Below are positions 3,225 through 50,919 of a DNA stretch of 64,000 nt, one piece after another (position 1 is the first letter of the stretch; every line of letters starts with the position of its first letter). The stretch is from Sulfuricurvum sp. (GTDB lineage Bacteria; Campylobacterota; Campylobacteria; Campylobacterales; Sulfurimonadaceae), in contig NZ_JAUYFF010000013.1 in assembly GCF_030691015.1 (NCBI RefSeq), positions 4,638-68,637 on the forward strand. Direction: 5' to 3'. The notes below the pieces were generated by a model. That model saw only the letters and a list, made by a program, of their open reading frames with translations. It was not told the DNA's origin and did not search any database. Both the position numbers and the translations under genes were made by a program.

Positions 3225-3987
3225 AGGACAAGTCGTCGTTATTACAGGCGGAGCAGGACTCATCGGAAAAGAGTTCGTTAAAGCCGTTATTAACAACGGC
3301 GGTATCGCTATCATTGCGGATATCAATATAGAAATCGGTACAAAAGTAAAAGATACCCTCTCAAATGAACTCAATACCCACAACATCGATTTCGTGACTT
3401 TGGACATCACTTCCAAAGATTCTCTCACTGAGACAATTGGCTATCTGAACCAAAAATACGGAAAAATCGATGCATTGGTCAATAATGCATACCCTCGGAA
3501 TAAAAATTACGGGAAACATTTTTTTGATGTCGAATACGCCGATTTTTGCGAAAATCTCAACCTCAATCTCGGCGGATATTTTCTCGCCAGCCAGCAGTTC
3601 GCCCTCTACTTCCAACAGCAGGGATTTGGAAATATCATCAACATCTCTTCCATTTACGGTGTAATCGCCCCAAAATTTGAAGTCTACGACAATACCCCTA
3701 TGAGTATGCCGGTCGAATACGCCGCGATCAAATCGGCACTTTTGATGCTGACGCAGTACATGGCAAAATATTTCAAAGGGATGAACATACGGGTCAATGC
3801 GATCAGCCCCGGAGGGATTTTCGATCACCAAAGCGAGCCTTTTTTAGAGAGCTATAAAAAACAGTGTCTCAATAAAGGGATGCTCGATAAAAGTGATCTG
3901 CAAGGGACACTCATCTATCTGCTCAGCGACATGAGCCGATATGTCAACGGTCAAAATATTATTGTGGATGACGGGTTTAGCTTATGA
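3217..3987 (+). CDS. ptmA: Short-chain dehydrogenase/reductase (PtmA-like)
   Basis: TGGAGLIGKE cofactor motif, NNAYP, catalytic YAAIKSAL (YxxxK). Synteny with Cj1332. Confidence 0.75.
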   Translation: MIKGQVVVITGGAGLIGKEFVKAVINNGGIAIIADINIEIGTKVKDTLSNELNTHNIDFVTLDITSKDSLTETIGYLNQKYGKIDALVNNAYPRNKNYGKHFFDVEYADFCENLNLNLGGYFLASQQFALYFQQQGFGNIINISSIYGVIAPKFEVYDNTPMSMPVEYAAIKSALLMLTQYMAKYFKGMNIRVNAISPGGIFDHQSEPFLESYKKQCLNKGMLDKSDLQGTLIYLLSDMSRYVNGQNIIVDDGFSL

Positions 3988-6052: not shown

Positions 6053-7880
6053 CACCGCTGCACCTATTTTTTCATTGAAATCCGAATACCGAAACATTTT
6101 TATTCTCGATTCGATAGAGTGGTGGGAGGATGCGACGTATGATCCCGCATTGGATTTGGTACTCACGTACGACTTTGGACTAAAACACAAAATTCACGCC
6201 TTGAGAGGCGAGGTTTACTACATCGACCATCTAATCGATCAAGCCACCATGCAAGAAAATAATTTTTTGGTGACCGATTTCTTAAAAAACTGGCATTATG
6301 ATGCTAACGGAAAGGATATTTTCACTTACAAAAATATCCCGTTCGGATTTTCATTACGATTGGATATTTGGAACGATCTGGTCTCTTACACACGCCTCTC
6401 TTTGTGTCTTGCCCAATTAAAAAACATTTCATTCGATGCTCTCTATCTAGGAAGCGACGATATTCGGATAAACACTATTCTAAATAGATATGGCTTTGAC
6501 GTTCAACCCTCCTCCAAATTAGCTTCCAAAGCGGTCTTTTATTTTCCGATTGCGCAGTGGCTGGATGAAAAAATCCGCTCAACAGGTTTGCGAGGAGGTT
6601 TGGTTCGCCTCAGAGAGATCGTTACAGCCATTTACGGCTATACGCTCCCTATTATTGATGCACTTATCCCCAAATCCAAATCTCAACGTGCCCTTTTTAT
6701 CCAAGAGTACCATCCGACGAGAAAGCTCATTGAGATTCTCAAAAAAGACCCTGCCTTACGTATCGTCTTGGTTAATTTTACACGAGGATCAAAACTGCTT
6801 GATCACCGATTTGAGCGTTTGATCCCCATCAGCGGTTCATTAAACGCATTTGATCTCTATGCCTCGGATCAGTTAAGCGCTTTTAGAGAAAACCGTCATG
6901 CTTCTCTTATTCTCACTAACGGCGATAATCTTACCGAAGCGATATACACGATCATCGAATCACGGATTGAGTCACGTATATCTCCTATACTTCGTACATT
7001 GCACAGTGTTATCCGCTATCTTGATAAACATCCGATCCAGCTCGAAATATTGATTGCCAATATGGGTCTCACCGCAACATTGGTCGATTGTGTCTGCAAA
7101 GCCAGAGGTATTCCGAGCTATCTCATCATCAACGGTATGCTGACCAGAGAGTTTATGGATGAAGCCAAATACGCTACCTATATCAACGCATACTCACCGA
7201 GTATCAAAGAGCACTATTTTCGAAATATGAAAGACATTGTTTGTCTCGGAGACCCTCGCATGGATAATTATCCTCCGCTCAAAAGCCTCAGAGTTATTAA
7301 TCGTACCAGCCCTACCATCACAATCGGTACATCTGGATTTAATCCTATCGATTTGAACTCATACGTAGCGGTAGAATTTGAATTTCTATACGATGTGTTA
7401 TCGGCACTACAGAAGATGATAAATACCCTTGCCCCGATGGAGATTATTATCAAAGTACGGCCTAACGGATACGAAAAGCAATATTCCGATTTTGTAGCAA
7501 CCTTTTTCCCCGACCTTCGTGTCCAGCTGATAAGTACCGCCTCTATGAAAAGCGTTCTAGATAAGACTGATCTCTATATCACCATCTATTCGCAGACCCT
7601 TTTTGAAGCCTCTTGCCTCGGTATCCCCGCGATCTATTATAAAAAAGATGCTGAAATAATGTATCCTCCGTTTGACGGCACATCGGAACTGGTAACGGTT
7701 GGCAGTGTTGATGATTTGGTTCAGGCATTTGTTGATTTTCAATCTGATGATACACGTTATAATGCTTTTTTAGATCGCACTGTCATGGAGCGCTATATCG
7801 GTCCGCTCGATGGTAACAACATGCAGAGAAATATCGATTTCGTGTATGAACTATTAGAAAAAGATGGGCAAAACCAATGA
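6045..7880 (+). CDS. Large soluble glycan-cluster protein, GT-B-like C-terminus; candidate (nonulosonic acid?) glycosyltransferase
   Basis: I prefer the ATG at 6045 (ATGCCTAA overlap with the wzx stop, AAGGA 11 nt upstream) over the listed 5955 start. The C-terminal [26 protein letters not shown] resembles a GT-B nucleotide-sugar-binding end. No family recognised with certainty. Confidence 0.4.
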
Positions 7881-41937: not shown

Positions 41938-42396
41938 ATGAACAAATGGATGGCTATGGCTTGCGATGAAGCGCTGAGGGGGATGGGAGCAAACGATGGA
42001 GGACCCTTCGGCGCGGCTATCGTCCGTGAGGGTAAACTCATTGCAACGGCACATAATGAAGTACTGGGGACAAATGATCCTACCGCTCATGCCGAAATCA
42101 ATGCCATACGTCGTGCTTCTGCCGCACTCGGAAAATTCGATCTCTCTGACTGCACTCTCTATACAACATGCTACCCATGCCCGATGTGCATGGGGGCTAT
42201 TTTCTGGGCACGAATCCCCACGGTTTATTATGCCTCATCCATGAAAGATGCCGCAGAGGGGGGATTTGACGATGAACATTTTTATACGATGATCCGCAGC
42301 CCCGAAACGGCTATCGATCTACGTCCTTTGGATGCCGAAAAGGGAAAAAAGCTATTCTCCCAATGGAATGCAAAAGAGGATAAAAAACTCTACTAG
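41938..42396 (+). CDS. guaD: Guanine deaminase (CDA-fold nucleoside deaminase, GuaD type)
   Basis: PTAHAEINAIR and CYPCPMCMGAIFWARI, with the tail GGFDDEHFY...KKLY. The whole length closely parallels B. subtilis GuaD as I recall it. Confidence 0.75.
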   Translation: MNKWMAMACDEALRGMGANDGGPFGAAIVREGKLIATAHNEVLGTNDPTAHAEINAIRRASAALGKFDLSDCTLYTTCYPCPMCMGAIFWARIPTVYYASSMKDAAEGGFDDEHFYTMIRSPETAIDLRPLDAEKGKKLFSQWNAKEDKKLY

Positions 42397-42482
42397 CCGA
42401 TAAATTCAACTACTTTTTCTTCCAATAACGTGAGTGCTTCACGCCATTTTGAACATTTGGGGTTATGCCAGATGGTTGTCAT
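42393..42482 (-). pseudogene. Truncated ArsC/YfgD-family (glutaredoxin-type arsenate reductase-like) N-terminal remnant
   Basis: The 29-codon ORF MTTIWHNPKCSKWREALTLLEEKVVEFIG* matches the family N-terminus (IYHNPRCSKSRxxLxLLE), then stops where the guaD stop codon overlaps. Confidence 0.5.
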
Positions 42483-42605
42483 AGGATTTCTCTTTTTCTG
42501 ACATTATAACTTTTCATATAGTATTAATTTATTCTTATTATTTTTACTTAACACAAATGTAACACTAATTCTTCATAATCCCACACTTTATTATTAGGAG
42601 TGGTG

Positions 42606-44795
42606 ATGACAAAAATCCCTCACAGTATTCTTCTCTCTGCCCTGTTGGCTAGCTCTTGTATCGCTGCTGAAAACCTTGGGGTCATCGAAATCGATTCTAC
42701 GACCATCGACGATCGCTTCGCAACCAAACGTACCGAGGTATCGAGCACCTCGACGATCAGCGGCGAGAGTGTTGACAATGCCCATACCGAAAATATCCAG
42801 CAAATTCTTCAAAGTATTCCGGGCATTACAACCGAAGTAAAAACGGGAGACAGTATCAAAATCCATATTCGCGGTATAGAAAACCAAGTCTATATGGGGG
42901 AAAAGCCGGGGGTTGCCGTCGTTGTGGACGGTGTTCCCGTATTTGAGCGGACGGGTTCGGTGAACATCGACCTTGATAATATCGAATCGATCAAAGTGAT
43001 CAAGGGGGGGGCATCGTACCTCTTCGGGGATGATGCCCTAAGCGGTGCGGTCATCATTACCACCAAAAAAGGGGCAAAATACAATCAAAATTTTGCCGCC
43101 ATCGAGCGCGGGAGCTTCGGTTACCAAAAATTATTAGCGAGAACCGGATACGCTAATGATGACTTTAGTTTTCATATCCAAGCGAGCGAACGCAAAGCAG
43201 ACGGCTACCATGAGGATTCCGATTACACCGCCCAATACCTCAACGGCAAACTTCAATACTACATCGACAGTACCAGTGATCTGACATTCGGGCTCGAAGC
43301 ATCAAAGCGAAAAAAAGATTCCCATGGAACCGTAGGGGGTGAAACAGAGGCGCAAACGAATCCTGAAAGTATTTTCACGGGGGATATGGAGAGCAGAGAC
43401 TACACCCGAAAGTTTGATGTTGAACTGTTGAAACTATTCCTCACCTATTCAAAAGATTTTTCCAATAACTCTAATTTACTCATCAACGGATATATGTATA
43501 CCGATGACACCTATTTTTGGTCGAGTCCTCAAACTAAAAACGGGAGCGGTGCGAGCGGAGTCTATACCGATGACGACTATGTCTATGATAACTACTACGA
43601 ACAAATCCAAAAAGGGATCAAAAGCGAATACAGAGCGTCGTTTGACACCTTCGCAACACTCTTGGGACTAGACGTAAGAGACAATAATTATAAAAATAAA
43701 GTCCTCTATCGGGTTGATCAGCGAGTTGGAGCACCGGGGAATTACACCTATTTACTCGCCGGCGATGAAAACAGCAACAACGAGACAGATGAAACAGTGT
43801 ACGCTCTCTACGGTGAGTACAAACAAGGGATCACGGATAAACTCAGCGCTACCTTCAATATTCGGTATGATGATATTAATCTTGACTACACCGATTCCCG
43901 CTCTAACGCTCTTGAGAAATCATTCGATGTTTATTCCTACAGAATCGGGACTAACTATAATTTAGATCCTCAAAATAACCTCTTTTTAAATTATTCGACA
44001 GGGTTCAGAGCGCCGACGATTACACAACTTTTTGCAGGGGATGTGAGCACCTACGGCAGCACGCAGAACAATCCCGAATTAAAACCTGAACACGCCAAAA
44101 ACTATGAAATTGGGTTACGGGGAGCTATCAGTAATATCAATTACGAAGCTTCTGCTTTTAGAATTGACCGAAAAGAGTTCATTATGAAAACTGCCGGGAA
44201 TTACGGAAGTGTAGATAGTACCATCACCGATATGTGGGACAACATAGGGGGGGCGAAACACCAAGGGCTAGAACTTGCAATGAACGCTAAAATCAATGAT
44301 CACTTCTCCTATAACCTAGCCTACACCTATCTCAACGCAAAATACACCAAATACGATAACTTCGGTATCCATTTTGATGCCGATCATGACGGAAGAGTTG
44401 ATGCAGGTGAAGTCGCGTATTACGATGTGACCGGAAATGTCATACCTCGAACCTCCAAACATAACCTCAATTTTATACTCGACTACCAGCATAATTCGAA
44501 TATCAAGTTCTCTACGGAGTACAGCAAAAAATCGGATTATTATGCGGATGATCTAAACAAAATTGAAATTGACGGTCAAGAAGCGGTTAATATCTTGGCC
44601 GAATATAAAGCAAAAATGAACACGGTAACGTATGCATTTTTCGCAAGAATCGACAATCTATTCGACAACCAATACTACAACACAGCACGTGCAAGCAGCG
44701 ATAGAGATACAAACTTACTCTTTAATGCAGAAGACCTCTCCATCACCGTGAATCCGGGACGTGTTTACACTGCCGGTCTTTCAATCAAATTTTAA
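42606..44795 (+). CDS. TonB-dependent outer membrane receptor
   Basis: AGGAG 5 nt before the ATG at 42606. Signal peptide, plug domain (IRGIENQVYMGEKPGVAVVVDGVP), beta-barrel, and terminal aromatic residue (GLSIKF). Confidence 0.9.
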   Translation: MTKIPHSILLSALLASSCIAAENLGVIEIDSTTIDDRFATKRTEVSSTSTISGESVDNAHTENIQQILQSIPGITTEVKTGDSIKIHIRGIENQVYMGEKPGVAVVVDGVPVFERTGSVNIDLDNIESIKVIKGGASYLFGDDALSGAVIITTKKGAKYNQNFAAIERGSFGYQKLLARTGYANDDFSFHIQASERKADGYHEDSDYTAQYLNGKLQYYIDSTSDLTFGLEASKRKKDSHGTVGGETEAQTNPESIFTGDMESRDYTRKFDVELLKLFLTYSKDFSNNSNLLINGYMYTDDTYFWSSPQTKNGSGASGVYTDDDYVYDNYYEQIQKGIKSEYRASFDTFATLLGLDVRDNNYKNKVLYRVDQRVGAPGNYTYLLAGDENSNNETDETVYALYGEYKQGITDKLSATFNIRYDDINLDYTDSRSNALEKSFDVYSYRIGTNYNLDPQNNLFLNYSTGFRAPTITQLFAGDVSTYGSTQNNPELKPEHAKNYEIGLRGAISNINYEASAFRIDRKEFIMKTAGNYGSVDSTITDMWDNIGGAKHQGLELAMNAKINDHFSYNLAYTYLNAKYTKYDNFGIHFDADHDGRVDAGEVAYYDVTGNVIPRTSKHNLNFILDYQHNSNIKFSTEYSKKSDYYADDLNKIEIDGQEAVNILAEYKAKMNTVTYAFFARIDNLFDNQYYNTARASSDRDTNLLFNAEDLSITVNPGRVYTAGLSIKF

Positions 44796-44804
44796 GGAAC
44801 TGAT

Positions 44805-45623
44805 ATGAAAAAAATACTCTTCTCACTCTTACTGGGAGTCTCCCTTTGGGGATATGGCGAGGGAGTTCTTTATTGGACTCCGCACGGATGCGATGAGGGG
44901 AAAACGACCGCATCCAAACACGGCGGACATGGAAAAGGGGAGAGTGCTATGTTCGCTTTAATGAACAGTGACGCGAACGCTTCGGCTCACCTCATCCTCC
45001 CTGATCTCTCGGAAAAAGCGTTGACGTTTACCTTAAATACCATAATGCTACCTAAGCCCTCTATGGGGGGATATTATGCCATGGTAGCCGAAGTTTCTAC
45101 CGCAACCCGGGTTCAAAGCGCCATCCGCTATCTCTCCCTTCAAGGGCGTCCAGCCAAAGTTTCCCCCACTCTACTCATCGCTTTGTCTAAAACAGCATTA
45201 GAGATTGTCCCCGATCCTCTGCACCGTGAGCACGACCGTTATACTGCCTCAAAATCGTACCGATTTATCCTCATGTTTCAAAACAAACCGCTCAAAAATG
45301 CAACCGTTACTTTAGAAACCCACAAGACTCCTATTCAAAACTATATGAGCGATGAAAGAGGGTCATTTACCATTACACTCCCCAATGATTTTACCAATGT
45401 CCGTGTCGGTCGAAGTGAAAACAAACCTTCTGAATTCCTCCTAAGTGTTCATCACAATGATAATTTTACAGCGTATACAAGCACGTTTTCAATGCCCTAC
45501 CATATCAATCCAAACGATTTTTGGCAATCACAGAGCTGGGGAATCGGTGCGATTTTTCTTGGATTTTTAGGTGGGATATTTCTCTATCGCAGACACAAAA
45601 AACAAGGAGTTTCTCGTGGATAA
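44805..45623 (+). CDS. Secreted, C-terminally TM-anchored protein with Ig/carboxypeptidase-regulatory-like domain (DUF4198/CbiK-periplasmic-like?)
   Basis: Signal peptide. FQNKPLKNATVTLETHK...DERGSFTITLP. C-terminal TM WGIGAIFLGFLGGIFLY followed by RRHKK. Confidence 0.45.
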   Translation: MKKILFSLLLGVSLWGYGEGVLYWTPHGCDEGKTTASKHGGHGKGESAMFALMNSDANASAHLILPDLSEKALTFTLNTIMLPKPSMGGYYAMVAEVSTATRVQSAIRYLSLQGRPAKVSPTLLIALSKTALEIVPDPLHREHDRYTASKSYRFILMFQNKPLKNATVTLETHKTPIQNYMSDERGSFTITLPNDFTNVRVGRSENKPSEFLLSVHHNDNFTAYTSTFSMPYHINPNDFWQSQSWGIGAIFLGFLGGIFLYRRHKKQGVSRG

Positions 45624-46617
45624 ATTCTTAACCGTTACGGCTCTTAGACGGGTCGTTCAACTTACCGCCTTTGTCTTTTTTGTGTATGGAGCTATGATTT
45701 TTGCCACTTTTTATACGGATGACAAACTGACCCAAGCCCTTCCGGCTCTCTCATGTGCCTATGATATGAAGGGGGGAGACTACTGCGCCCTAATCCCTCT
45801 TCAACATCAGATGGATCACCGTGTTTCCACCCTCTTTACCCAAAATGCAGGGGCGATGGAAGCATTTATGGGGACACTCATCACTATCGGTACCGTTGCC
45901 CTTTTGATTCTTATCCTCAACAAAGCATTTTGCGGATGGCTCTGTCCTCTCGGATTTTTTCAAGAGACCATCACGATGATCGGCACCAAACTTGGATTCA
46001 CCCAGCTTACGTCACTAAGCCGTGAGACGATCACTAAAATCCGCCCGATCAAATGGTTTATTTTCCTCTTTTTGGTTCTCATTTTACCTCTGCTTACGGG
46101 GATCGGTTTTCTAGGACACGAGTGGGGAAATCCTTATTGTTCCATCTGCCCGAGTCGCATCATGACAACGGCCATGACGGGTGATATGTCTCAAGTTTAT
46201 ATCTCTCAGGCCAACGGAGGCTACTTTGCCCTCTCACTGATCGCCGATTTACTCTTCGGACTGATGATCGCCCTCGCCCTCTTCGTCCGTCAGCCGTTTT
46301 GCCGTATCTGCCCGATTCTCCCGATGCAGACGCTGTTTAAAAAAATCGGTCTTTTACGTCTCGTCAAAAATGGATCCTCCAGCTGTGAATCGTGCGGAAA
46401 CTGTATCAAAGCGTGTCCGATGGATATTTATGAGATTCAAGACCAAGCCGAAAACCGTAACATCACCCACAGCGACTGTACCCTCTGCGGACGATGTGTC
46501 GAGTTTTGTCCTCATGATGGGGTCATGAGCTTCAAATACGGTCCGCTCACCCTCTATAGCTCTTCCAAAGAGAGGTTCAAAAAGCGGACCAAAATCGATA
46601 AATGGTGGAAGGGTTAA
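45616..46617 (+). CDS. Membrane-bound polyferredoxin, NapH/NosH/FtrD-like 4Fe-4S protein
   Basis: AAGGAG 6 nt before the GTG at 45616. TM helices with CGWLCPLG and CSICPSR motifs. C-terminal CESCGNCIKACP and CTLCGRCVEFCP. Confidence 0.75.
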   Translation: MDKFLTVTALRRVVQLTAFVFFVYGAMIFATFYTDDKLTQALPALSCAYDMKGGDYCALIPLQHQMDHRVSTLFTQNAGAMEAFMGTLITIGTVALLILILNKAFCGWLCPLGFFQETITMIGTKLGFTQLTSLSRETITKIRPIKWFIFLFLVLILPLLTGIGFLGHEWGNPYCSICPSRIMTTAMTGDMSQVYISQANGGYFALSLIADLLFGLMIALALFVRQPFCRICPILPMQTLFKKIGLLRLVKNGSSSCESCGNCIKACPMDIYEIQDQAENRNITHSDCTLCGRCVEFCPHDGVMSFKYGPLTLYSSSKERFKKRTKIDKWWKG

Positions 46618-46620
46618 AGA

Positions 46621-47268
46621 GTGGAACCGCTAGCCTTCCTCTCCCTTTTTATCGTTGCCCTCTCCTATGGAGCGACAGCCTGTATGCTCACCTGCATGCC
46701 GCTCCTCTCCCCCATACTTTTGGCCAACAGTGCAACACGCCAACAAAGCCTCCGAGTCCTGCTCCCTATCAGTTTAGGGCGTATCAGCGGCTATATAGCC
46801 CTCTCTGTTGTTGCTTACTATGGTGCAACGATGATTAAATCTCTCATCAGCGATACCATCCTAATGGGGTACCTGCTGGGGAGTGTCACCCTCATTCTCG
46901 CAGGGCGATTATGGTTCTCCCTTAGAACCTCATCCTCCTGCTGTAGCACCACAACTGATACACCCCAAGAGGCAATACCCCTTTTTATGACCGGAGTTTT
47001 CTTATCGATGTCACTCTGTGCCCCCGTTATCACGATGATGACCCTCAGCGCAACCACCCCCTCTTTAATCTGGGCAATTGCCTATGGCTTTACCTTCGGA
47101 TTAGGGGCAACACTCCTATGGTTCCTCTTTTTTTCCGTGGTTCTCACCGCCATACTCAAAGAGAGTCTACTTCACCTCTCTCGCTACCGAGTAGTGCTCC
47201 AACACACCGCACCGATCCTCCTTGCGGGGGTAGCGATTGCAATCTTTAACGGATGGATACACCTATGA
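46621..47268 (+). CDS. DsbD/CcdA-like (DsbD_2 family) membrane protein
   Basis: 6 TM. Cys pair in the first helix, GATACMLTCMPLLSP. GTG start. Confidence 0.55.
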   Translation: MEPLAFLSLFIVALSYGATACMLTCMPLLSPILLANSATRQQSLRVLLPISLGRISGYIALSVVAYYGATMIKSLISDTILMGYLLGSVTLILAGRLWFSLRTSSSCCSTTTDTPQEAIPLFMTGVFLSMSLCAPVITMMTLSATTPSLIWAIAYGFTFGLGATLLWFLFFSVVLTAILKESLLHLSRYRVVLQHTAPILLAGVAIAIFNGWIHL

Positions 47269-47951
47269 TGACAACCGCACGTAAATCGTTTTTCCTCTCC
47301 CTTACCTTTCATGCCCTCATGGGTTCTTTGGCTTTTGGGGTACTAACCCAGCTCACTACCCCCCCCAAACTTGTGAAAATCCCTATGCATCACGTGAGCC
47401 TGATCTCTCTCTCAAAACCCTCCCCATCTCCAAAACTCCAACCTCGTCAACCTCTTCAACCGCCTCTTGCGGAGACAATAAAACCTCTTGTGAAAGAGCC
47501 GCAAAAGCCGTTATTACAAAAACAGAGTGTCGCAAAAGAACCAATCGCAGCACCGATTCAATCGTCTGTACTATCGCAAGTAACACCGACTGCACCTCTT
47601 GCACAAGCGATTATTGCACCCGCACCGCCACCGGTAAAAGTGTCGCCTAAACCCGATCTAACGGCTGCAAAAAGATCATTTTTTGCCTCTTTGCGCACCA
47701 CGATACAGAACCATTTACGCTATCCGAGCGCGGCACGACGCAGAGGGATGGAAGGGGAAATCGATGTCCGATTCACATTGGCTAATGATGGAACGATTAA
47801 TACCATTTCGGTTCAGCGGGGAGAGGCTATTTTCCATAATGCGGTCAAAACCGCCGTTTCCTCAGCTTCAGGTATCGATGTTCCGAAAAATCTTGTAGAC
47901 TCTTTACCGATGGAGATTGAACTGACGTTAGAGTTTAAGCTGAACAGCTAA
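47265..47951 (+). CDS. tonB: TonB-family energy transducer
   Basis: N-terminal TM, Pro-rich spacer (PSPSPKLQPRQPLQPP...), C-terminal YPSAARRRGMEGEIDVRFTLANDGTI. The ATG at 47265 forms an ATGA overlap (47253 is an alternative). Confidence 0.85.
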   Translation: MMTTARKSFFLSLTFHALMGSLAFGVLTQLTTPPKLVKIPMHHVSLISLSKPSPSPKLQPRQPLQPPLAETIKPLVKEPQKPLLQKQSVAKEPIAAPIQSSVLSQVTPTAPLAQAIIAPAPPPVKVSPKPDLTAAKRSFFASLRTTIQNHLRYPSAARRRGMEGEIDVRFTLANDGTINTISVQRGEAIFHNAVKTAVSSASGIDVPKNLVDSLPMEIELTLEFKLNS

Positions 47952-48018: not shown

Positions 48019-49014
48019 TTGTTCGTGTCCCTAAAATTACCCTTTTCTTCTTTACTCCTCCTTTTCATCTCTACGTATGCGCACGCTTACGAATTGGGTC
48101 GCGGGGCACAAATAAACGATCATATCAATGTAGGCGGATATTTTTCGAGCGAATTTGAAGCAGGCCGAAGCGATGAGACCTTTACTCTCGATGACGTAGC
48201 CGTCATGGCCTATGGGGACATTAACCCTATGATTTCGTATTTAGCAGAGTTTGAAGCGGTCGGGTTTTACCACAAAAACCTCAGCGACGGGAGCGACGGG
48301 GGAAGCCAAAAGTTCCATGCCGAACGGCTATACGGTGATCTGTGGATGTCGGATGATTTTAATATCCGTTTCGGAAAACAAATCACCCCTATCGGATATT
48401 GGAACATGGAACCGATCAACGTATTACGCGATACGACCTCTAACCCCCTTTACAGCATGCTTCTTTTTCCAAAATTTCTAACCGGTATCGATATCAACGG
48501 CTATGTACCAAATACTGAAGGGTTGCGCTATCACCTTTTTGCCCAAAAAAATCATGATTTGGACGAAGAGTACATCAATATTCCCAACACCCATTTTTAC
48601 GGTTTTGCCGTTGAAAAAGAGTTTTCTATGGAGTGGAACGGCGGCGGAAGCGTAGGGGAATATATTACGAAAACCAACCAACGAACGCGTTTTCTTCAAG
48701 CGAATGTCAAATACGATGATACCAAGTGGCAACTCGTCAGTGAAGCGCTGCTTGCCAAAAGTGACTACAACAGCAGAGAAGACGATTATACCCTCTCAGG
48801 CTATGTGCAGGCAATGTATCATTATATGCCCGAACACGCTGTAGTCGGAAGAATTGAGCATTATAACGACCATTTCTCTGACTATAAAGATACTATCATC
48901 ACGTTGGGCTACAGCTATCGTCCCCTTTACCCCGTCTCTTTAAAAGGGGAATACCAATGGCATTCTCAGAATGAGGAGAATCGTGCACTCTTCTCTTTTT
49001 CGGTACTCTTCTGA
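48019..49014 (+). CDS. Outer-membrane beta-barrel (porin-like) protein
   Basis: Signal peptide ending AHA, alternating amphipathic strands, C-terminal FSFSVLF. Confidence 0.55.
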   Translation: MFVSLKLPFSSLLLLFISTYAHAYELGRGAQINDHINVGGYFSSEFEAGRSDETFTLDDVAVMAYGDINPMISYLAEFEAVGFYHKNLSDGSDGGSQKFHAERLYGDLWMSDDFNIRFGKQITPIGYWNMEPINVLRDTTSNPLYSMLLFPKFLTGIDINGYVPNTEGLRYHLFAQKNHDLDEEYINIPNTHFYGFAVEKEFSMEWNGGGSVGEYITKTNQRTRFLQANVKYDDTKWQLVSEALLAKSDYNSREDDYTLSGYVQAMYHYMPEHAVVGRIEHYNDHFSDYKDTIITLGYSYRPLYPVSLKGEYQWHSQNEENRALFSFSVLF

Positions 49015-49415
49015 TGAAAACCATTACGCTACTCCTTATTGCTGCCTCAGCCCTCTTTGGAGCACAATACAGTGTGATCATCTCAAAAAAAGCCGATGTG
49101 GGGGCATTATCCGCACAACAGATTCGGGATATTTTTTTACAGAAACGGCACTCTTTAGGAAATCAGAAAATCATTCCCCTCAATTTAGTCGGTCAAGAGG
49201 CTTCTCGAATCGCATTTGAGAATGACGTTTTAGGAATGGGGAGAGATCGGTTAAATGCCTACTGGGTCAAACAGCATTTCCAAGGGATTACCCCTCCGAT
49301 CACCCAGCCCTCCCATGAATCGATCAAAGCGTTTGTCCAAAATGTGGAAGGCTCTATCGGATATATCCCCTCTTCCATGGCCGATGGCAGCGTAAAGGTG
49401 ATCTATGAGTTTTAA
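49014..49415 (+). CDS. Small periplasmic PstS/PBP-like half-domain protein
   Basis: Signal peptide. LSAQQIRDIFLQK...GSIGYIPSS resembles one lobe of phosphate-binding proteins. Confidence 0.5.
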   Translation: MKTITLLLIAASALFGAQYSVIISKKADVGALSAQQIRDIFLQKRHSLGNQKIIPLNLVGQEASRIAFENDVLGMGRDRLNAYWVKQHFQGITPPITQPSHESIKAFVQNVEGSIGYIPSSMADGSVKVIYEF

Positions 49416-50919
49416 ACTTAAAACCATTCTCCTCTTTTTAGGGGTCAGCCTTATCCCCTATGCGTTGAGTATGATATTGCTGGGCAGCTCGTTTCGTCAA
49501 GAACAATATAATGCCGTTACGCAAGAGATGAATACCCAGCTAAGCCTTACGGTAGAGCGGATCGATCAGCATCTGCAAACCCTCCAAAACGATATGGCAT
49601 TTATTGCCAAATCAGAAGTTATGAACGATCTCTATACCCAAGATTTGGATCGTCGTATCAGTACCATGCTTCTCTCTAAAAAAAATGATATGAAGATGAG
49701 CGGTGATTTTTATGTCATAGACGTAAACCGTAAAATTATCGCGTCCAGTGACTTTAGCACTATTTCCAAAATCAAATCCATACAACCTTTTTTTGCAATC
49801 CCTATTCACTCAACCTTTACCCAAGAAAAAATTGCTGAACTCATCGTCACCTATCCGCTCGATAACTTCCAACCATTTTTTTCCAACTCTCCGCAGCGCC
49901 ATTATTATCTCAAGCATCGTAATGGAACCATCGCGCTTCGACCCAATGTTTTTGAAGAATCGCTCCAAGTCTCCCATCCGCTCAAACATCAGCCGGAACT
50001 AACCATTGTTTTGGAAGAGGAAAAAGGGTTCGCGTACCGATTGCTCTACAAATATGAACAATGGTTTATCGCGCTACTGATCGCAGGTGCCATTTTCATA
50101 GCCGCCGCTGCCTATTATATTGCTACGGGGCTTATCCGCCCCGTAATTGCCCTCTCCGATACGGCCAAAAAAATCACCCGCACTCAAGATTACACCCAGC
50201 AAGTTTCCGTTGATCGGGATGATGAGATCGGGCAGCTTTCCGATGCTTTCAATACGATGATCGGGGGGATGGATAAAGCATTGGATGAAATCACCACCCT
50301 AAATCATGAAATCGAAGATACTCAGCGGGAAGTCGTTTTTACAATGGGTTCCATCGGGGAGAGCCGTTCCAAAGAGACGGGAAATCACGTCAAAAGAGTG
50401 GCGGAATATTCCAAACTTCTTGCTCTGTATTACGGCCTTAATGAAGAAGATGCTGAGATGCTTAGACAAGCCTCCCCAATGCACGACATCGGAAAAGTAG
50501 CCATCCCCGATGCCGTTTTAAACAAGCCGGGGCGTTTTGATGAGGAAGAGCGGCGTATCATGGATACCCACGCCGAATTAGGGTATGAGATGCTCAAACA
50601 CTCCAACCGACCGCTCCTTAAAATGGCCGCGACGGTGGCGTATGAACATCACGAAAAATACAATGGAAGCGGGTATCCAAGAGGCTTGAGCGGTGAAGAG
50701 ATCCATATCTACGGCCGTATTACGGCATTGGCCGATGTGTTCGATGCACTGGGAAGTGATCGTGTCTATAAAAAAGCGTGGGATGATGAGCGGATTTTTA
50801 CCCTTTTTAGGGAAGAGCGCGGGGAACATTTCGATCCTAAACTGATCGATATCTTTTTTGAGCATTTGGATGAATTTCTCGCGATTCGTGAGACCTTTAA
50901 AGATACCCACGAATCTTAA
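49405..50919 (+). CDS. Periplasmic-sensor / HAMP / HD-GYP c-di-GMP phosphodiesterase
   Basis: Two TM flanking a ~200-aa periplasmic region. HAMP (RPVIALSDTAKKI...DEIGQLSDAFNTM). HD-GYP (HDIGKV, HHEKYNGSGYPRG). Confidence 0.85.
   Translation: MSFKLKTILLFLGVSLIPYALSMILLGSSFRQEQYNAVTQEMNTQLSLTVERIDQHLQTLQNDMAFIAKSEVMNDLYTQDLDRRISTMLLSKKNDMKMSGDFYVIDVNRKIIASSDFSTISKIKSIQPFFAIPIHSTFTQEKIAELIVTYPLDNFQPFFSNSPQRHYYLKHRNGTIALRPNVFEESLQVSHPLKHQPELTIVLEEEKGFAYRLLYKYEQWFIALLIAGAIFIAAAAYYIATGLIRPVIALSDTAKKITRTQDYTQQVSVDRDDEIGQLSDAFNTMIGGMDKALDEITTLNHEIEDTQREVVFTMGSIGESRSKETGNHVKRVAEYSKLLALYYGLNEEDAEMLRQASPMHDIGKVAIPDAVLNKPGRFDEEERRIMDTHAELGYEMLKHSNRPLLKMAATVAYEHHEKYNGSGYPRGLSGEEIHIYGRITALADVFDALGSDRVYKKAWDDERIFTLFREERGEHFDPKLIDIFFEHLDEFLAIRETFKDTHES

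Follow-up and report, generated by a model that had tools for sequence, protein, structure and literature searches.

A conserved TonB-receptor operon with a NapH-like membrane polyferredoxin as a candidate system for reductive metal uptake, most likely of copper, in sulfur- and iron-oxidizing bacteria

Uptake systems that combine a TonB-dependent outer-membrane receptor (TBDR) with an inner-membrane reductase are known from FoxA-FoxB of Pseudomonas for iron and from CrtA, which is accompanied by a PepSY_TM protein, for copper (PMC12914433), and clusters of PepSY-like, ApbE, DUF2271, and DUF4198 genes, sometimes with a TonB component, have been predicted to reduce Fe(III) in the periplasm (10.1101/2021.01.07.425746; 10.1101/2024.10.16.618771). 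How copper passes the outer and especially the inner membrane of bacteria is poorly understood. To our knowledge, only a handful of copper receptors (OprC/NosA, CrtA, and TccA) and very few inner-membrane importers have been found. The FtrABCD system of Bordetella and Brucella includes with FtrD a NapH-like polyferredoxin that is proposed to accept electrons from the oxidation of Fe(II). Here, we describe an operon in a 64,000-nucleotide stretch of Sulfuricurvum sp. DNA (contig NZ_JAUYFF010000013.1; the whole stretch is called the window, and coordinates refer to it unless a contig or locus is named) that encodes a TBDR, an anchored periplasmic protein of 272 amino acids, a membrane polyferredoxin of the NapH superfamily, a membrane protein of the DsbD_2 family, and a TonB of its own. 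This operon probably mediates reductive TonB-dependent metal uptake, and we lean toward copper as the metal. A first-pass annotation made from the sequence had not recognized the arrangement as a characterized system, and our literature searches (on DUF4198, DsbD_2/PF13386, NapH plus TonB, double-cubane plus TonB, and Sulfuricurvum/Thiodiazotropha plus TonB) likewise found no published description of it.

The five genes lie on the forward strand at 42600-47951, and an open reading frame (ORF) check together with Pfam and NCBIfam searches reproduced the ORFs, the junctions (a 9-nt gap followed by junctions of 8, 3, and 4 nt), and the domain calls for all five proteins that the first-pass annotation had given. 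Ribosome-binding sites and ortholog alignments back each start. The receptor gene (42606..44795) encodes about 729 amino acids from ATG 42606 within an ORF that opens at GTG 42600, and it is followed from ATG 44805 by the gene of the 272-aa protein (44805..45623), a two-domain beta-sandwich periplasmic protein with signal peptide and C-terminal membrane anchor. The gene of the four-helix polyferredoxin (45616..46617) encodes 333 amino acids from GTG 45616, the start supported by orthologs within a longest ORF from 45571, and overlaps the preceding stop by 8 nt. The gene of the six-helix DsbD_2 (PF13386) membrane protein (46621..47268) starts at GTG 46621 and overlaps by 4 nt with tonB (47265..47951), for which ATG 47265 is preferred over the longest ORF from 47253 and whose product shows an N-terminal anchor, a proline-rich spacer, and a TonB_C domain (1.6e-10). 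No intrinsic terminators beyond shuffle expectation were found between the five genes, and in wastewater metatranscriptome contigs the transcripts of related strains cover all five of them, although these contigs are so fragmented that they do not establish one continuous transcript.

The evidence that these genes work together comes from their conservation, which we followed in a scan of one genome per species; all locus counts refer to the best 80 of at least 528 related loci. A homolog of the 272-aa protein is encoded directly upstream of the polyferredoxin in 78 of the 80 loci and a DsbD_2 protein directly downstream in 74 (3 more are cut by contig ends), while a TBDR gene lies upstream in 65 (12 more cut by contig ends). 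TonB follows DsbD_2 in 49 loci, usually behind ExbB-ExbD outside Sulfuricurvum, and ExbD is present in 34. This clustering is far beyond chance. The order of receptor, anchored periplasmic protein, NapH-like polyferredoxin, and DsbD_2 protein is kept in 80 of 80 loci from Campylobacterota, Gammaproteobacteria, and Zetaproteobacteria, with hosts in Sulfuricurvum, Sulfurimonas, Sulfurovaceae, Arcobacter, Mariprofundaceae, and many sulfur-oxidizing Gammaproteobacteria (Candidatus Thiodiazotropha, Sedimenticola, Thiohalomonadaceae, Halothiobacillus, and Thioalkalispiraceae). Around half of the 37 Sulfuricurvum genomes carry an ortholog of the polyferredoxin, and the five-gene block is syntenic in those. 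Even where the 272-aa protein shows only about 40% identity, the gene order is maintained amid quite different flanks; one of these versions continues into ExbB-ExbD-TonB and another adjoins a [NiFe]-hydrogenase cluster and a TetR gene. The most variable part is the receptor (22-63% identity and sometimes another subtype), whereas the other three genes stay orthologous. Clustering of all unassigned flanking ORFs of the 80 loci yielded lineage-specific neighbors only, and the functional unit therefore consists of four genes plus Ton components. The co-conservation that the first-pass annotation had called for thus extends over three bacterial classes, and the case that it had named as fatal, a polyferredoxin belonging to an unrelated respiratory complex encoded elsewhere, does not apply. 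Because the polyferredoxin always travels with the receptor, the DUF4198-like 272-aa protein, and the DsbD_2 protein, a redox step built into TonB-dependent uptake, as proposed at the time, is the most economical reading of the block.

The polyferredoxin contains a Fer4_5 domain and two CxxCxxCxxxCP 4Fe-4S motifs (Pfam), and hydropathy and charge predict four helices with both termini in the cytoplasm. Its AF2 model is poor (pLDDT 65) and found no Foldseek match at E <0.1, and the topology therefore rests on hydropathy and charge. Among 74 orthologs, the predicted periplasmic loops have invariant C62, C72, H79, H83, C190, and C193 as well as H183 (98%), and the predicted cytoplasmic side has invariant C121/C125 (CX3CP), C244/C247 (CX2CP), and two four-cysteine clusters. 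The polyferredoxin is thus predicted to carry a conserved Cys/His site that faces the periplasm. NapH/MauN is its best NCBIfam family at sub-threshold scores. With NapH, the protein has in common a four-helix topology, a cytoplasmic CX3CP, and two 4Fe-4S motifs, which makes it a member of the NapH superfamily only. Membership in NapH itself was rejected (74.8 bits versus 213 for TIGR02163 and 74.2 versus 234 for PRK09477, with nap genes in none of the 80 loci), as was an assignment to CcoG/FixG/RdxA, since the corresponding model (TIGR02745) finds the true CcoG of this genome at C4:578466-579824 (475 bits) and not the polyferredoxin; a Pfam search of the latter gave no match to the Fer4_18 or FixG_C domains. 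An exact-sequence look-up of the window's polyferredoxin retrieved no identical record.

In the 272-aa protein, a signal peptide is followed by a variable histidine-rich stretch (HGGHG here, with longer forms in some orthologs), two domains of the beta-sandwich type, and a transmembrane helix at the C terminus (residues 244-268). Its match to Pfam DUF4198 (PF10670) is below threshold (20.4 bits versus a cut-off of 34, over residues 130-194 only) and stands beside a weak match to CarboxypepD_reg, and some orthologs have a precomputed PF10670 match. Searches of PDB sequences with the protein and its profile gave nothing useful. A Foldseek search of the PDB with its AF2 model (pLDDT 81, pTM 0.76) returned Zcp (E 1e-9 to 9e-8) and IsDUF4198 (1e-6) as the nine best matches, with TM scores of about 0.5; the matched Zcp structures include Zn-, Cu-, and Co-bound forms, and the DUF4198 structure from Ideonella sakaiensis is Ni-bound. 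The modeled protein has the two-domain beta-sandwich of Zcp and IsDUF4198 with a candidate histidine-based site. In 72 orthologs, the N-terminal motif H-x(1-2)-H is retained (H39 in 88%; e.g., AHDHR, SHGHR, and GHGGHG) together with an R-E-H motif (E142 and H143 100%, R141 94%) and the C-terminal helix 244-268. H-x(1-2)-H and H143 may parallel the ligands H29, H31, and H142 of Zcp from Neisseria gonorrhoeae (title of PDB 9MHK). Zcp and IsDUF4198, the only members of DUF4198 to have been characterized, each bind metal in the periplasm (PMC12663993, PMC12537917), and on the strength of its model we view the 272-aa protein as a divergent, membrane-anchored protein of the DUF4198 type that is predicted to bind metal.

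The DsbD_2 protein passes PF13386 (48.2 bits versus 24.9), and its residues 9-201 span profile positions 2-193 of 199. In 66 orthologs, C21 (98%), C25, and P27 of helix 1 and C133 and P135 of helix 4 are conserved along with C107 (90%) in a positively charged, presumably cytoplasmic loop, which results in the pattern CxxxCxP / cytoplasmic-loop Cys / CxP. Compared to classical CcdA/DsbD transporters, with one redox cysteine in each of two pseudo-repeats, the protein has Cys-Pro in helices 1 and 4, but CxxxC in helix 1 and a further conserved loop cysteine. No gene for a thioredoxin-fold partner was found in the 80 loci, and a PDB sequence search with the protein gave nothing useful. Public records name orthologs "sulfite exporter TauE/SafE" or "urease accessory protein UreH-like"; the UreH family consists of secondary transporters for Ni/Co (PMC2667541). 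The genome also contains a second DsbD_2 gene (HCxGMCGG) that is divergent from the gene of an HMA protein of the CopZ/MerP type with signal peptide, and this pair has, by analogy, what looks like the arrangement of a periplasmic chaperone and its importer. Because of this second pair, the missing thioredoxin partner, and the UreH-like names, a thiolate-relay permease is favored for the operon's DsbD_2 protein and seems somewhat more likely than a pure electron carrier. The missing partner, the cysteine pattern, and the naming make the protein at least as likely the inner-membrane permease that the cluster otherwise lacks. The earlier remark that no permease is visible would consequently be true only if the DsbD_2 protein is not one, which is doubtful, and of the "two separate transmembrane electron-transfer proteins" that the first-pass annotation had seen, the polyferredoxin is kept while the DsbD_2 part is uncertain.

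At the outer membrane, the receptor is a clear TBDR (PF07715 Plug, 67 bits, 2e-18; PF00593 barrel, 152 bits, 8e-44; both above cut-off), but it stays below the cut-off of every named NCBIfam receptor family, with the best scores for siderophore and heme receptor subfamilies. Most versions of the operon outside Sulfuricurvum, including those of Gammaproteobacteria, have ExbB-ExbD-TonB inside it. The absence of ExbBD that had been noted before is correct for the cluster in the window and not for the genome, in which contig C6 has genes for ExbB-ExbD that share their promoter motif with the operon; ExbBD is thus probably supplied in trans from the same regulon.

This promoter motif is found at 42397-42605, a region that had been singled out as a place to search for Fur, NikR, or PerR operators. 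Scans for these and for Zur were no better than shuffles, and the region holds a direct repeat instead. It reads TTAACAC-AAAT-GTAACAC (42548..42565, forward strand), i.e., two 7-mers with an 11-bp period in place of a -35 element, and is followed 8 nt downstream by a putative -10 hexamer CATAAT (42574..42579) and further on by the apparent ribosome-binding site AGGAG (42596-42600), both on the same strand. The repeat (consensus TTAACAC-N4-KTAACAC) occupies the same position in all ortholog promoters of Campylobacterota that we examined, including those of operons with proteins only 40% identical, and a (C/T)A(T/C)AAT or TACAAT hexamer follows it at the same distance at other sites of the regulon. 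Its exact pattern has 120 matches in 37 of 37 Sulfuricurvum genomes, as compared to 3 for a reversed control. From its structure, we presume that it is bound by a response regulator of the OmpR/PhoB family.

Several other targets of the repeat are found in the window's own genome. It precedes a receptor gene at C19:78043 whose best family is TonB-copper (178 bits versus a cut-off of 472) and whose product has CPNRM at 99 and HDM at 296, i.e., the CxxxM-HxM site that binds copper in OprC (PMC11836926). With one mismatch per site, it also precedes the divergent genes of the HMA protein (87 amino acids) and the second DsbD_2 protein (C4:609299/609320). Three tandem TTAACAC units (C6:1527-1555) stand before an operon of about 6.5 kb outside the window that encodes, in this order, a phosphomannomutase, a dihydroorotase-like protein, an OmpR-type response regulator, a sensor kinase, ExbB, ExbD, a 2OG-Fe(II) oxygenase, and TerC, and that is conserved in four other Sulfuricurvum genomes. 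This operon is probably the autoregulated regulator of the regulon as well as the ExbBD source for the window's TonB, and its response regulator would be the obvious candidate for the activator. In the same four other genomes, all 19 inspected repeat sites lie just upstream of same-strand genes: the regulator-ExbBD operon (4), OprC-like or other receptors (7), the second DsbD_2 gene (1), DsbD_2-TonB (1), an operon for a bd-like membrane protein/cytochrome c, a thioredoxin, and a CcoG-like protein (4), a DUF2202 gene with a two-component pair (1), and an outer-membrane protein (1). In the region 60-200 nt upstream of the receptor genes, the gammaproteobacterial versions (L070-L117) have sigma-54-type -24/-12 elements (TGGCAC-N5-TTGC) and, upstream of these, repeated GTGATATCAC / GGCATATCAC-like elements that presumably are sites of an enhancer-binding protein.

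Some observations on the repeat stand apart from these targets. At C4:544157-544500, outside the window, a one-mismatch variant of it, TTAACACAAAATTAACAC, with a good TACAAT hexamer behind it is followed by no ORF and instead by a short structured stretch and a tRNA-like sequence. In other Sulfuricurvum genomes, this variant heads the operon for the bd-like oxidase/cytochrome c, thioredoxin, and CcoG-like protein, an operon that is missing from the window's genome. Two Sulfurimonadaceae metagenome-assembled genomes (MAGs; L056 at ~6870-7063 and L058 at ~3780-3974) have a leader of about 150 nt between repeat and receptor start that contains a long hairpin (ACACCGGAG ... CTCCGGTGT) as well as a tail, CATGAATCACAGGAGA, both of them conserved; this leader has no match in Rfam and may be a novel riboswitch or attenuator. 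In riboswitch searches, a gathering-threshold Rfam search of the window and four paralog loci and an Rfam E-value search of three long-leader loci found tRNAs only, and a B12-box pattern search over all loci had no match upstream of an operon.

Many relatives, though not the window's genome, additionally have a paralogous cluster, either 7-10 kb from a system of the window's type or fused to it (e.g., L021:830-9137, minus strand, in Sulfuricurvum G035; also L025, L040, L079, and L105). Its order is receptor, anchored DUF4198-like protein (distantly related to the 272-aa protein; hhalign 67-92%), NapH-like paralog (about 35% identity), HGD-D family protein, and BcrAD/BadFG ATPase, with or without DsbD_2, and we take the HGD-D protein and the ATPase to have the composition of a double-cubane cluster protein with its ATP-dependent reductase. 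The cluster has the same promoter repeat in inverted orientation. In genomes that lack the window-type trio of receptor, anchored protein, and polyferredoxin, it is divergent from DsbD_2-TonB, and wastewater metatranscriptome contigs contain the same promoter-to-DsbD_2 joint as these genomes. In a Sedimenticola MAG (L105), both systems are fused into one operon of 11 genes. This fusion and the divergent DsbD_2-TonB arrangement indicate that DsbD_2 and TonB serve both versions.

The case for copper is built on the company that the operon keeps. Three independent observations tie it to OprC-type copper receptors: The promoter repeat is common to the operon, the OprC-type receptor gene, and the HMA/DsbD_2 pair, with targets that recur in four other Sulfuricurvum genomes; the only OprC-type receptor gene of a Thiohalomonadaceae MAG is divergent from the operon, with shared upstream repeats and sigma-54 promoters on both sides; and the only OprC-type gene of another gammaproteobacterium directly follows the operon's tonB. 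Beyond these, NosL, a Cu(I) chaperone domain, is fused to the DUF4198-like domain in a 909-aa protein of one paralogous cluster. The cysteine ligands of the DsbD_2 protein and the need for a redox partner fit the Cu(II)/Cu(I) couple, and the hosts live as microaerophiles at sulfidic interfaces and depend on copper oxidases; CcoG is present in this genome.

We therefore propose the following route as a working model. The receptor, energized by its own TonB with ExbB-ExbD from C6, would bring a metal species into the periplasm, where the anchored DUF4198-type protein would capture the divalent ion at a three-histidine-type site formed by H-x(1-2)-H and His143. The polyferredoxin would then move electrons between its cytoplasmic Fe-S clusters and the Cys/His site facing the periplasm and reduce Cu(II) to Cu(I), and the cysteine-lined DsbD_2 protein would conduct Cu(I), a soft ion, through the inner membrane, with expression of the operon driven by an OmpR-type activator on the direct repeat of the promoter. 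That electrons flow in this direction and that the DsbD_2 protein acts as a permease are inferences. In its most specific form, this model would describe inner-membrane copper import in which the polyferredoxin reduces Cu(II) from the anchored DUF4198 protein and feeds Cu(I) to a permease of the DsbD superfamily in microaerophilic sulfur and iron oxidizers of sulfidic, copper-starved habitats, with the paralog as the first physiological role of the double-cubane class; taken as a whole, we offer this extended version only tentatively.

Several points weigh against copper or against parts of this route. We infer the metal solely from co-regulation and gene neighborhood. The operon's own receptor is not of the copper type of OprC/NosA, since TIGR01778 is absent from its matches and it has no CxxxM-HxM site because its sole cysteine sits in the signal peptide, and its nearest solved structures are those of the PQQ transporter YncD/PqqU (E 3e-25). 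Ni(II), Co(II), or Zn(II) would fit a three-histidine site just as well; the metals bound by Zcp are Zn, Cu, and Co, and IsDUF4198 has a preference for Ni (PMC12663993, PMC12537917). One distant locus lies beside a [NiFe]-hydrogenase cluster. As a general partner, NosL had to be discarded given that it occurs in one fusion only and is absent from this genome and from the other paralogous proteins checked. The sensor kinase encoded on C6 has no periplasmic sensor domain. Finally, reduction of Cu(II) needs no low-potential donor, yet the paralogous system recruits an ATP-driven reductase of very low potential; some versions thus appear to invest ATP in electrons in a way that simple Cu(II) reduction does not explain.

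The best-surviving alternative keeps the architecture and changes the metal to nickel or cobalt (or zinc or iron): The DUF4198-like and UreH-like DsbD_2 proteins would import Ni(II) or Co(II), and the polyferredoxin would reduce a chelate, e.g., of Co(III), or be accessory. DUF4198 proteins adjoin TonB receptors and NikR and bind nickel with nanomolar affinity (PMC12537917), the UreH family with which orthologs of the DsbD_2 protein share their names transports these very metals (PMC2667541), relatives of Sulfuricurvum use hydrogenases, and the distant locus mentioned above lies next to a TetR gene as well as to its hydrogenase cluster. That adjacency is limited to one lineage, however, and NikR, Zur, and Fur boxes at the promoter did not exceed shuffle expectation, while scans of the window and of seven further loci, related or paralogous, found no cobalamin or NiCo riboswitch. 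Partners that are co-regulated with the operon or adjacent to it are instead of the Cu(I) type (the OprC CxxxM-HxM receptor and the HMA protein), and the conserved ligands of the DsbD_2 protein are cysteines and not the His/Asp motifs of Ni/Co permeases. We consider this alternative unlikely, if worth keeping in mind.

Less likely still is that neither membrane protein carries the metal or changes its valence. In this reading, the DsbD_2 protein would be a thiol-disulfide electron carrier of the CcdA kind and hold the polyferredoxin's periplasmic cysteines in the reduced state, or electrons would flow inward and the polyferredoxin would be an FtrD-like sink that oxidizes the imported species or its ligand, such as metal-bound sulfide, and so sets the metal free, with the true permease encoded elsewhere or the metal used in the periplasm. 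Such a carrier would agree with the homology of the DsbD_2 protein to DsbD/CcdA, including Cys-Pro in helices 1 and 4 and matches of distant orthologs to PF02683, and could have a client in the polyferredoxin with its four invariant periplasmic cysteines; an electron sink would have a precedent in FtrD as proposed acceptor and would suit sulfur oxidizers of sulfidic habitats where metals are present as sulfides, and use in the periplasm would suit the main cuproenzymes, which are loaded from the periplasmic side. Against this, none of the 80 loci provides the thioredoxin-fold partner, helix-1 CxxxC plus loop cysteine are unlike CcdA with its one cysteine per repeat and resemble the MerT relay, the second DsbD_2 gene and that of a periplasmic MerP/CopZ-like protein form a pair in the classic arrangement of an importer, and no other permease is co-conserved. 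Least probable is a redox-active organic or inorganic compound that is reduced on entry, such as a PQQ-like quinone cofactor, a corrinoid, heme, or a sulfur or selenium species: PqqU/YncD as the nearest solved relatives of the receptor, its best NCBIfam scores among siderophore and heme subfamilies, the recruitment of a double-cubane-type ATP-driven reductase suited to difficult reductions by paralogous clusters, and a distribution almost confined to sulfur and iron oxidizers would be in line with it, but the partner that is always present has the DUF4198 fold and retains a histidine-based metal site, all receptor matches are far below family cut-offs, the receptor is swapped between lineages while the other three genes are orthologous, no ABC or other permease typical of heme, B12, or PQQ import accompanies the operon, and the co-regulated genes are of metal type.

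Around the operon, the genes at 48019-50919, which encode a porin-like outer-membrane protein, a 133-aa periplasmic protein, and an HD-GYP sensor, begin 67 nt after tonB without an evident terminator. Their synteny holds throughout Sulfuricurvum, also in genomes in which DsbD_2-TonB is all that is left, but we regard them as a separate unit because they were not found with the operon outside this genus. On the other side, the minus strand at 42393-42482 holds a short remnant of an ArsC-family gene, and several relatives have an intact gene for a 114-aa ArsC-family protein directly upstream of the receptor gene and divergent from it (e.g., L037:7275-7619). Within the receptor gene, related-strain contigs in four of four wastewater metatranscriptome runs read A at 43004 for the first G of a G8 tract, and the length of this homopolymer is therefore not conserved among close relatives.

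If reductive copper uptake is the function of the operon, it would represent a compact and strictly conserved candidate route for copper in ecologically important sulfur and iron oxidizers, with carriers including symbionts of lucinid clams and Campylobacterota of groundwater and wastewater that need copper enzymes where sulfide makes copper scarce. It would also provide functions for three large groups of orphan proteins, namely for anchored DUF4198-like proteins, for non-respiratory NapH-like polyferredoxins, and for cysteine-rich DsbD_2 proteins, including those annotated as TauE/SafE, and through the paralogous cluster link double-cubane reductases to metal uptake. The operon moreover defines a regulon with a clear DNA motif that can be tested.

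Compared to known systems, the defining parts of FoxA-FoxB, CrtA, PepSY/DUF2271 clusters, FtrABCD, NapGH, and CcoG are all absent here beyond resemblance at the level of superfamilies. The closest in logic are cruR-crtA-bp2921 of Bordetella pertussis and FoxA-FoxB, which likewise encode a TBDR alongside a presumed inner-membrane reductase of the metal or chelate taken up, sometimes have dedicated ExbBD/TonB genes in the operon, and share the link to the copper supply of respiratory oxidases. Unlike in the CrtA system, the reductase would here be a NapH-type Fe-S polyferredoxin and not a PepSY_TM heme protein, the receptor does not resemble CrtA (its PDB matches include none of this type), the anchored DUF4198-like and DsbD_2 proteins are two extra invariant partners, and expression is associated with a direct-repeat activator site or a sigma-54 promoter and not with the CruR upstream ORF. 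PepSY/DUF2271/DUF4198 clusters, which have been assigned to reductive metal acquisition, share a periplasmic DUF4198 protein, a transmembrane electron carrier, and sometimes TonB uptake genes with the operon, but the latter has an Fe-S electron carrier, a membrane-anchored DUF4198-like protein, and DsbD_2. Flavinylated systems of the PepSY/DUF2271/DUF4198 or NapH-like kind (Meheust et al.) were considered and set aside, as ApbE, FMN_bind, DUF2271, and PepSY have no match in the five genes and their neighbors. FtrABCD, to which the first-pass annotation had compared the cluster, offers the precedent of a NapH-superfamily membrane polyferredoxin as the redox partner of metal uptake; it has no TBDR, and the analogy fails as membership because P19 (FtrA), cupredoxin (FtrB), and FTR1 (FtrC) are all without a Pfam match in the five proteins and their neighbors, which leaves an FtrD-like polyferredoxin only.

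For the individual proteins, Zcp and IsDUF4198 resemble the 272-aa protein in their two-domain fold, an N-terminal histidine pair with a mid-sequence histidine, periplasmic location, and TonB-receptor neighborhood. The 272-aa protein differs from them by falling below the Pfam cut-off, by its C-terminal transmembrane anchor and constant polyferredoxin neighbor, and by lacking the N-terminal His brace, and Zcp for its part is monocistronic, Zur-regulated, and dispensable for uptake. The DsbD_2 protein is homologous to CcdA/DsbD by Pfam but differs in CxxxC in helix 1 and in having no thioredoxin-like partner; conversely, it is not homologous to MerT of MerP-MerT, yet resembles it as a small polytopic membrane protein with a membrane-embedded cysteine pair and a cytoplasmic-loop cysteine that could form a MerT-like relay. 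The polyferredoxin, finally, has its best functional analogy in the cupric reductase CcoG/FixG/RdxA of cbb3 oxidase assembly, with which it shares the Fer4_5 CX3CP, two [4Fe-4S] clusters, and the association with an Ig-like domain, and its own subfamily adds to these the periplasmic Cys/His site at which the reduction of Cu(II) would take place.

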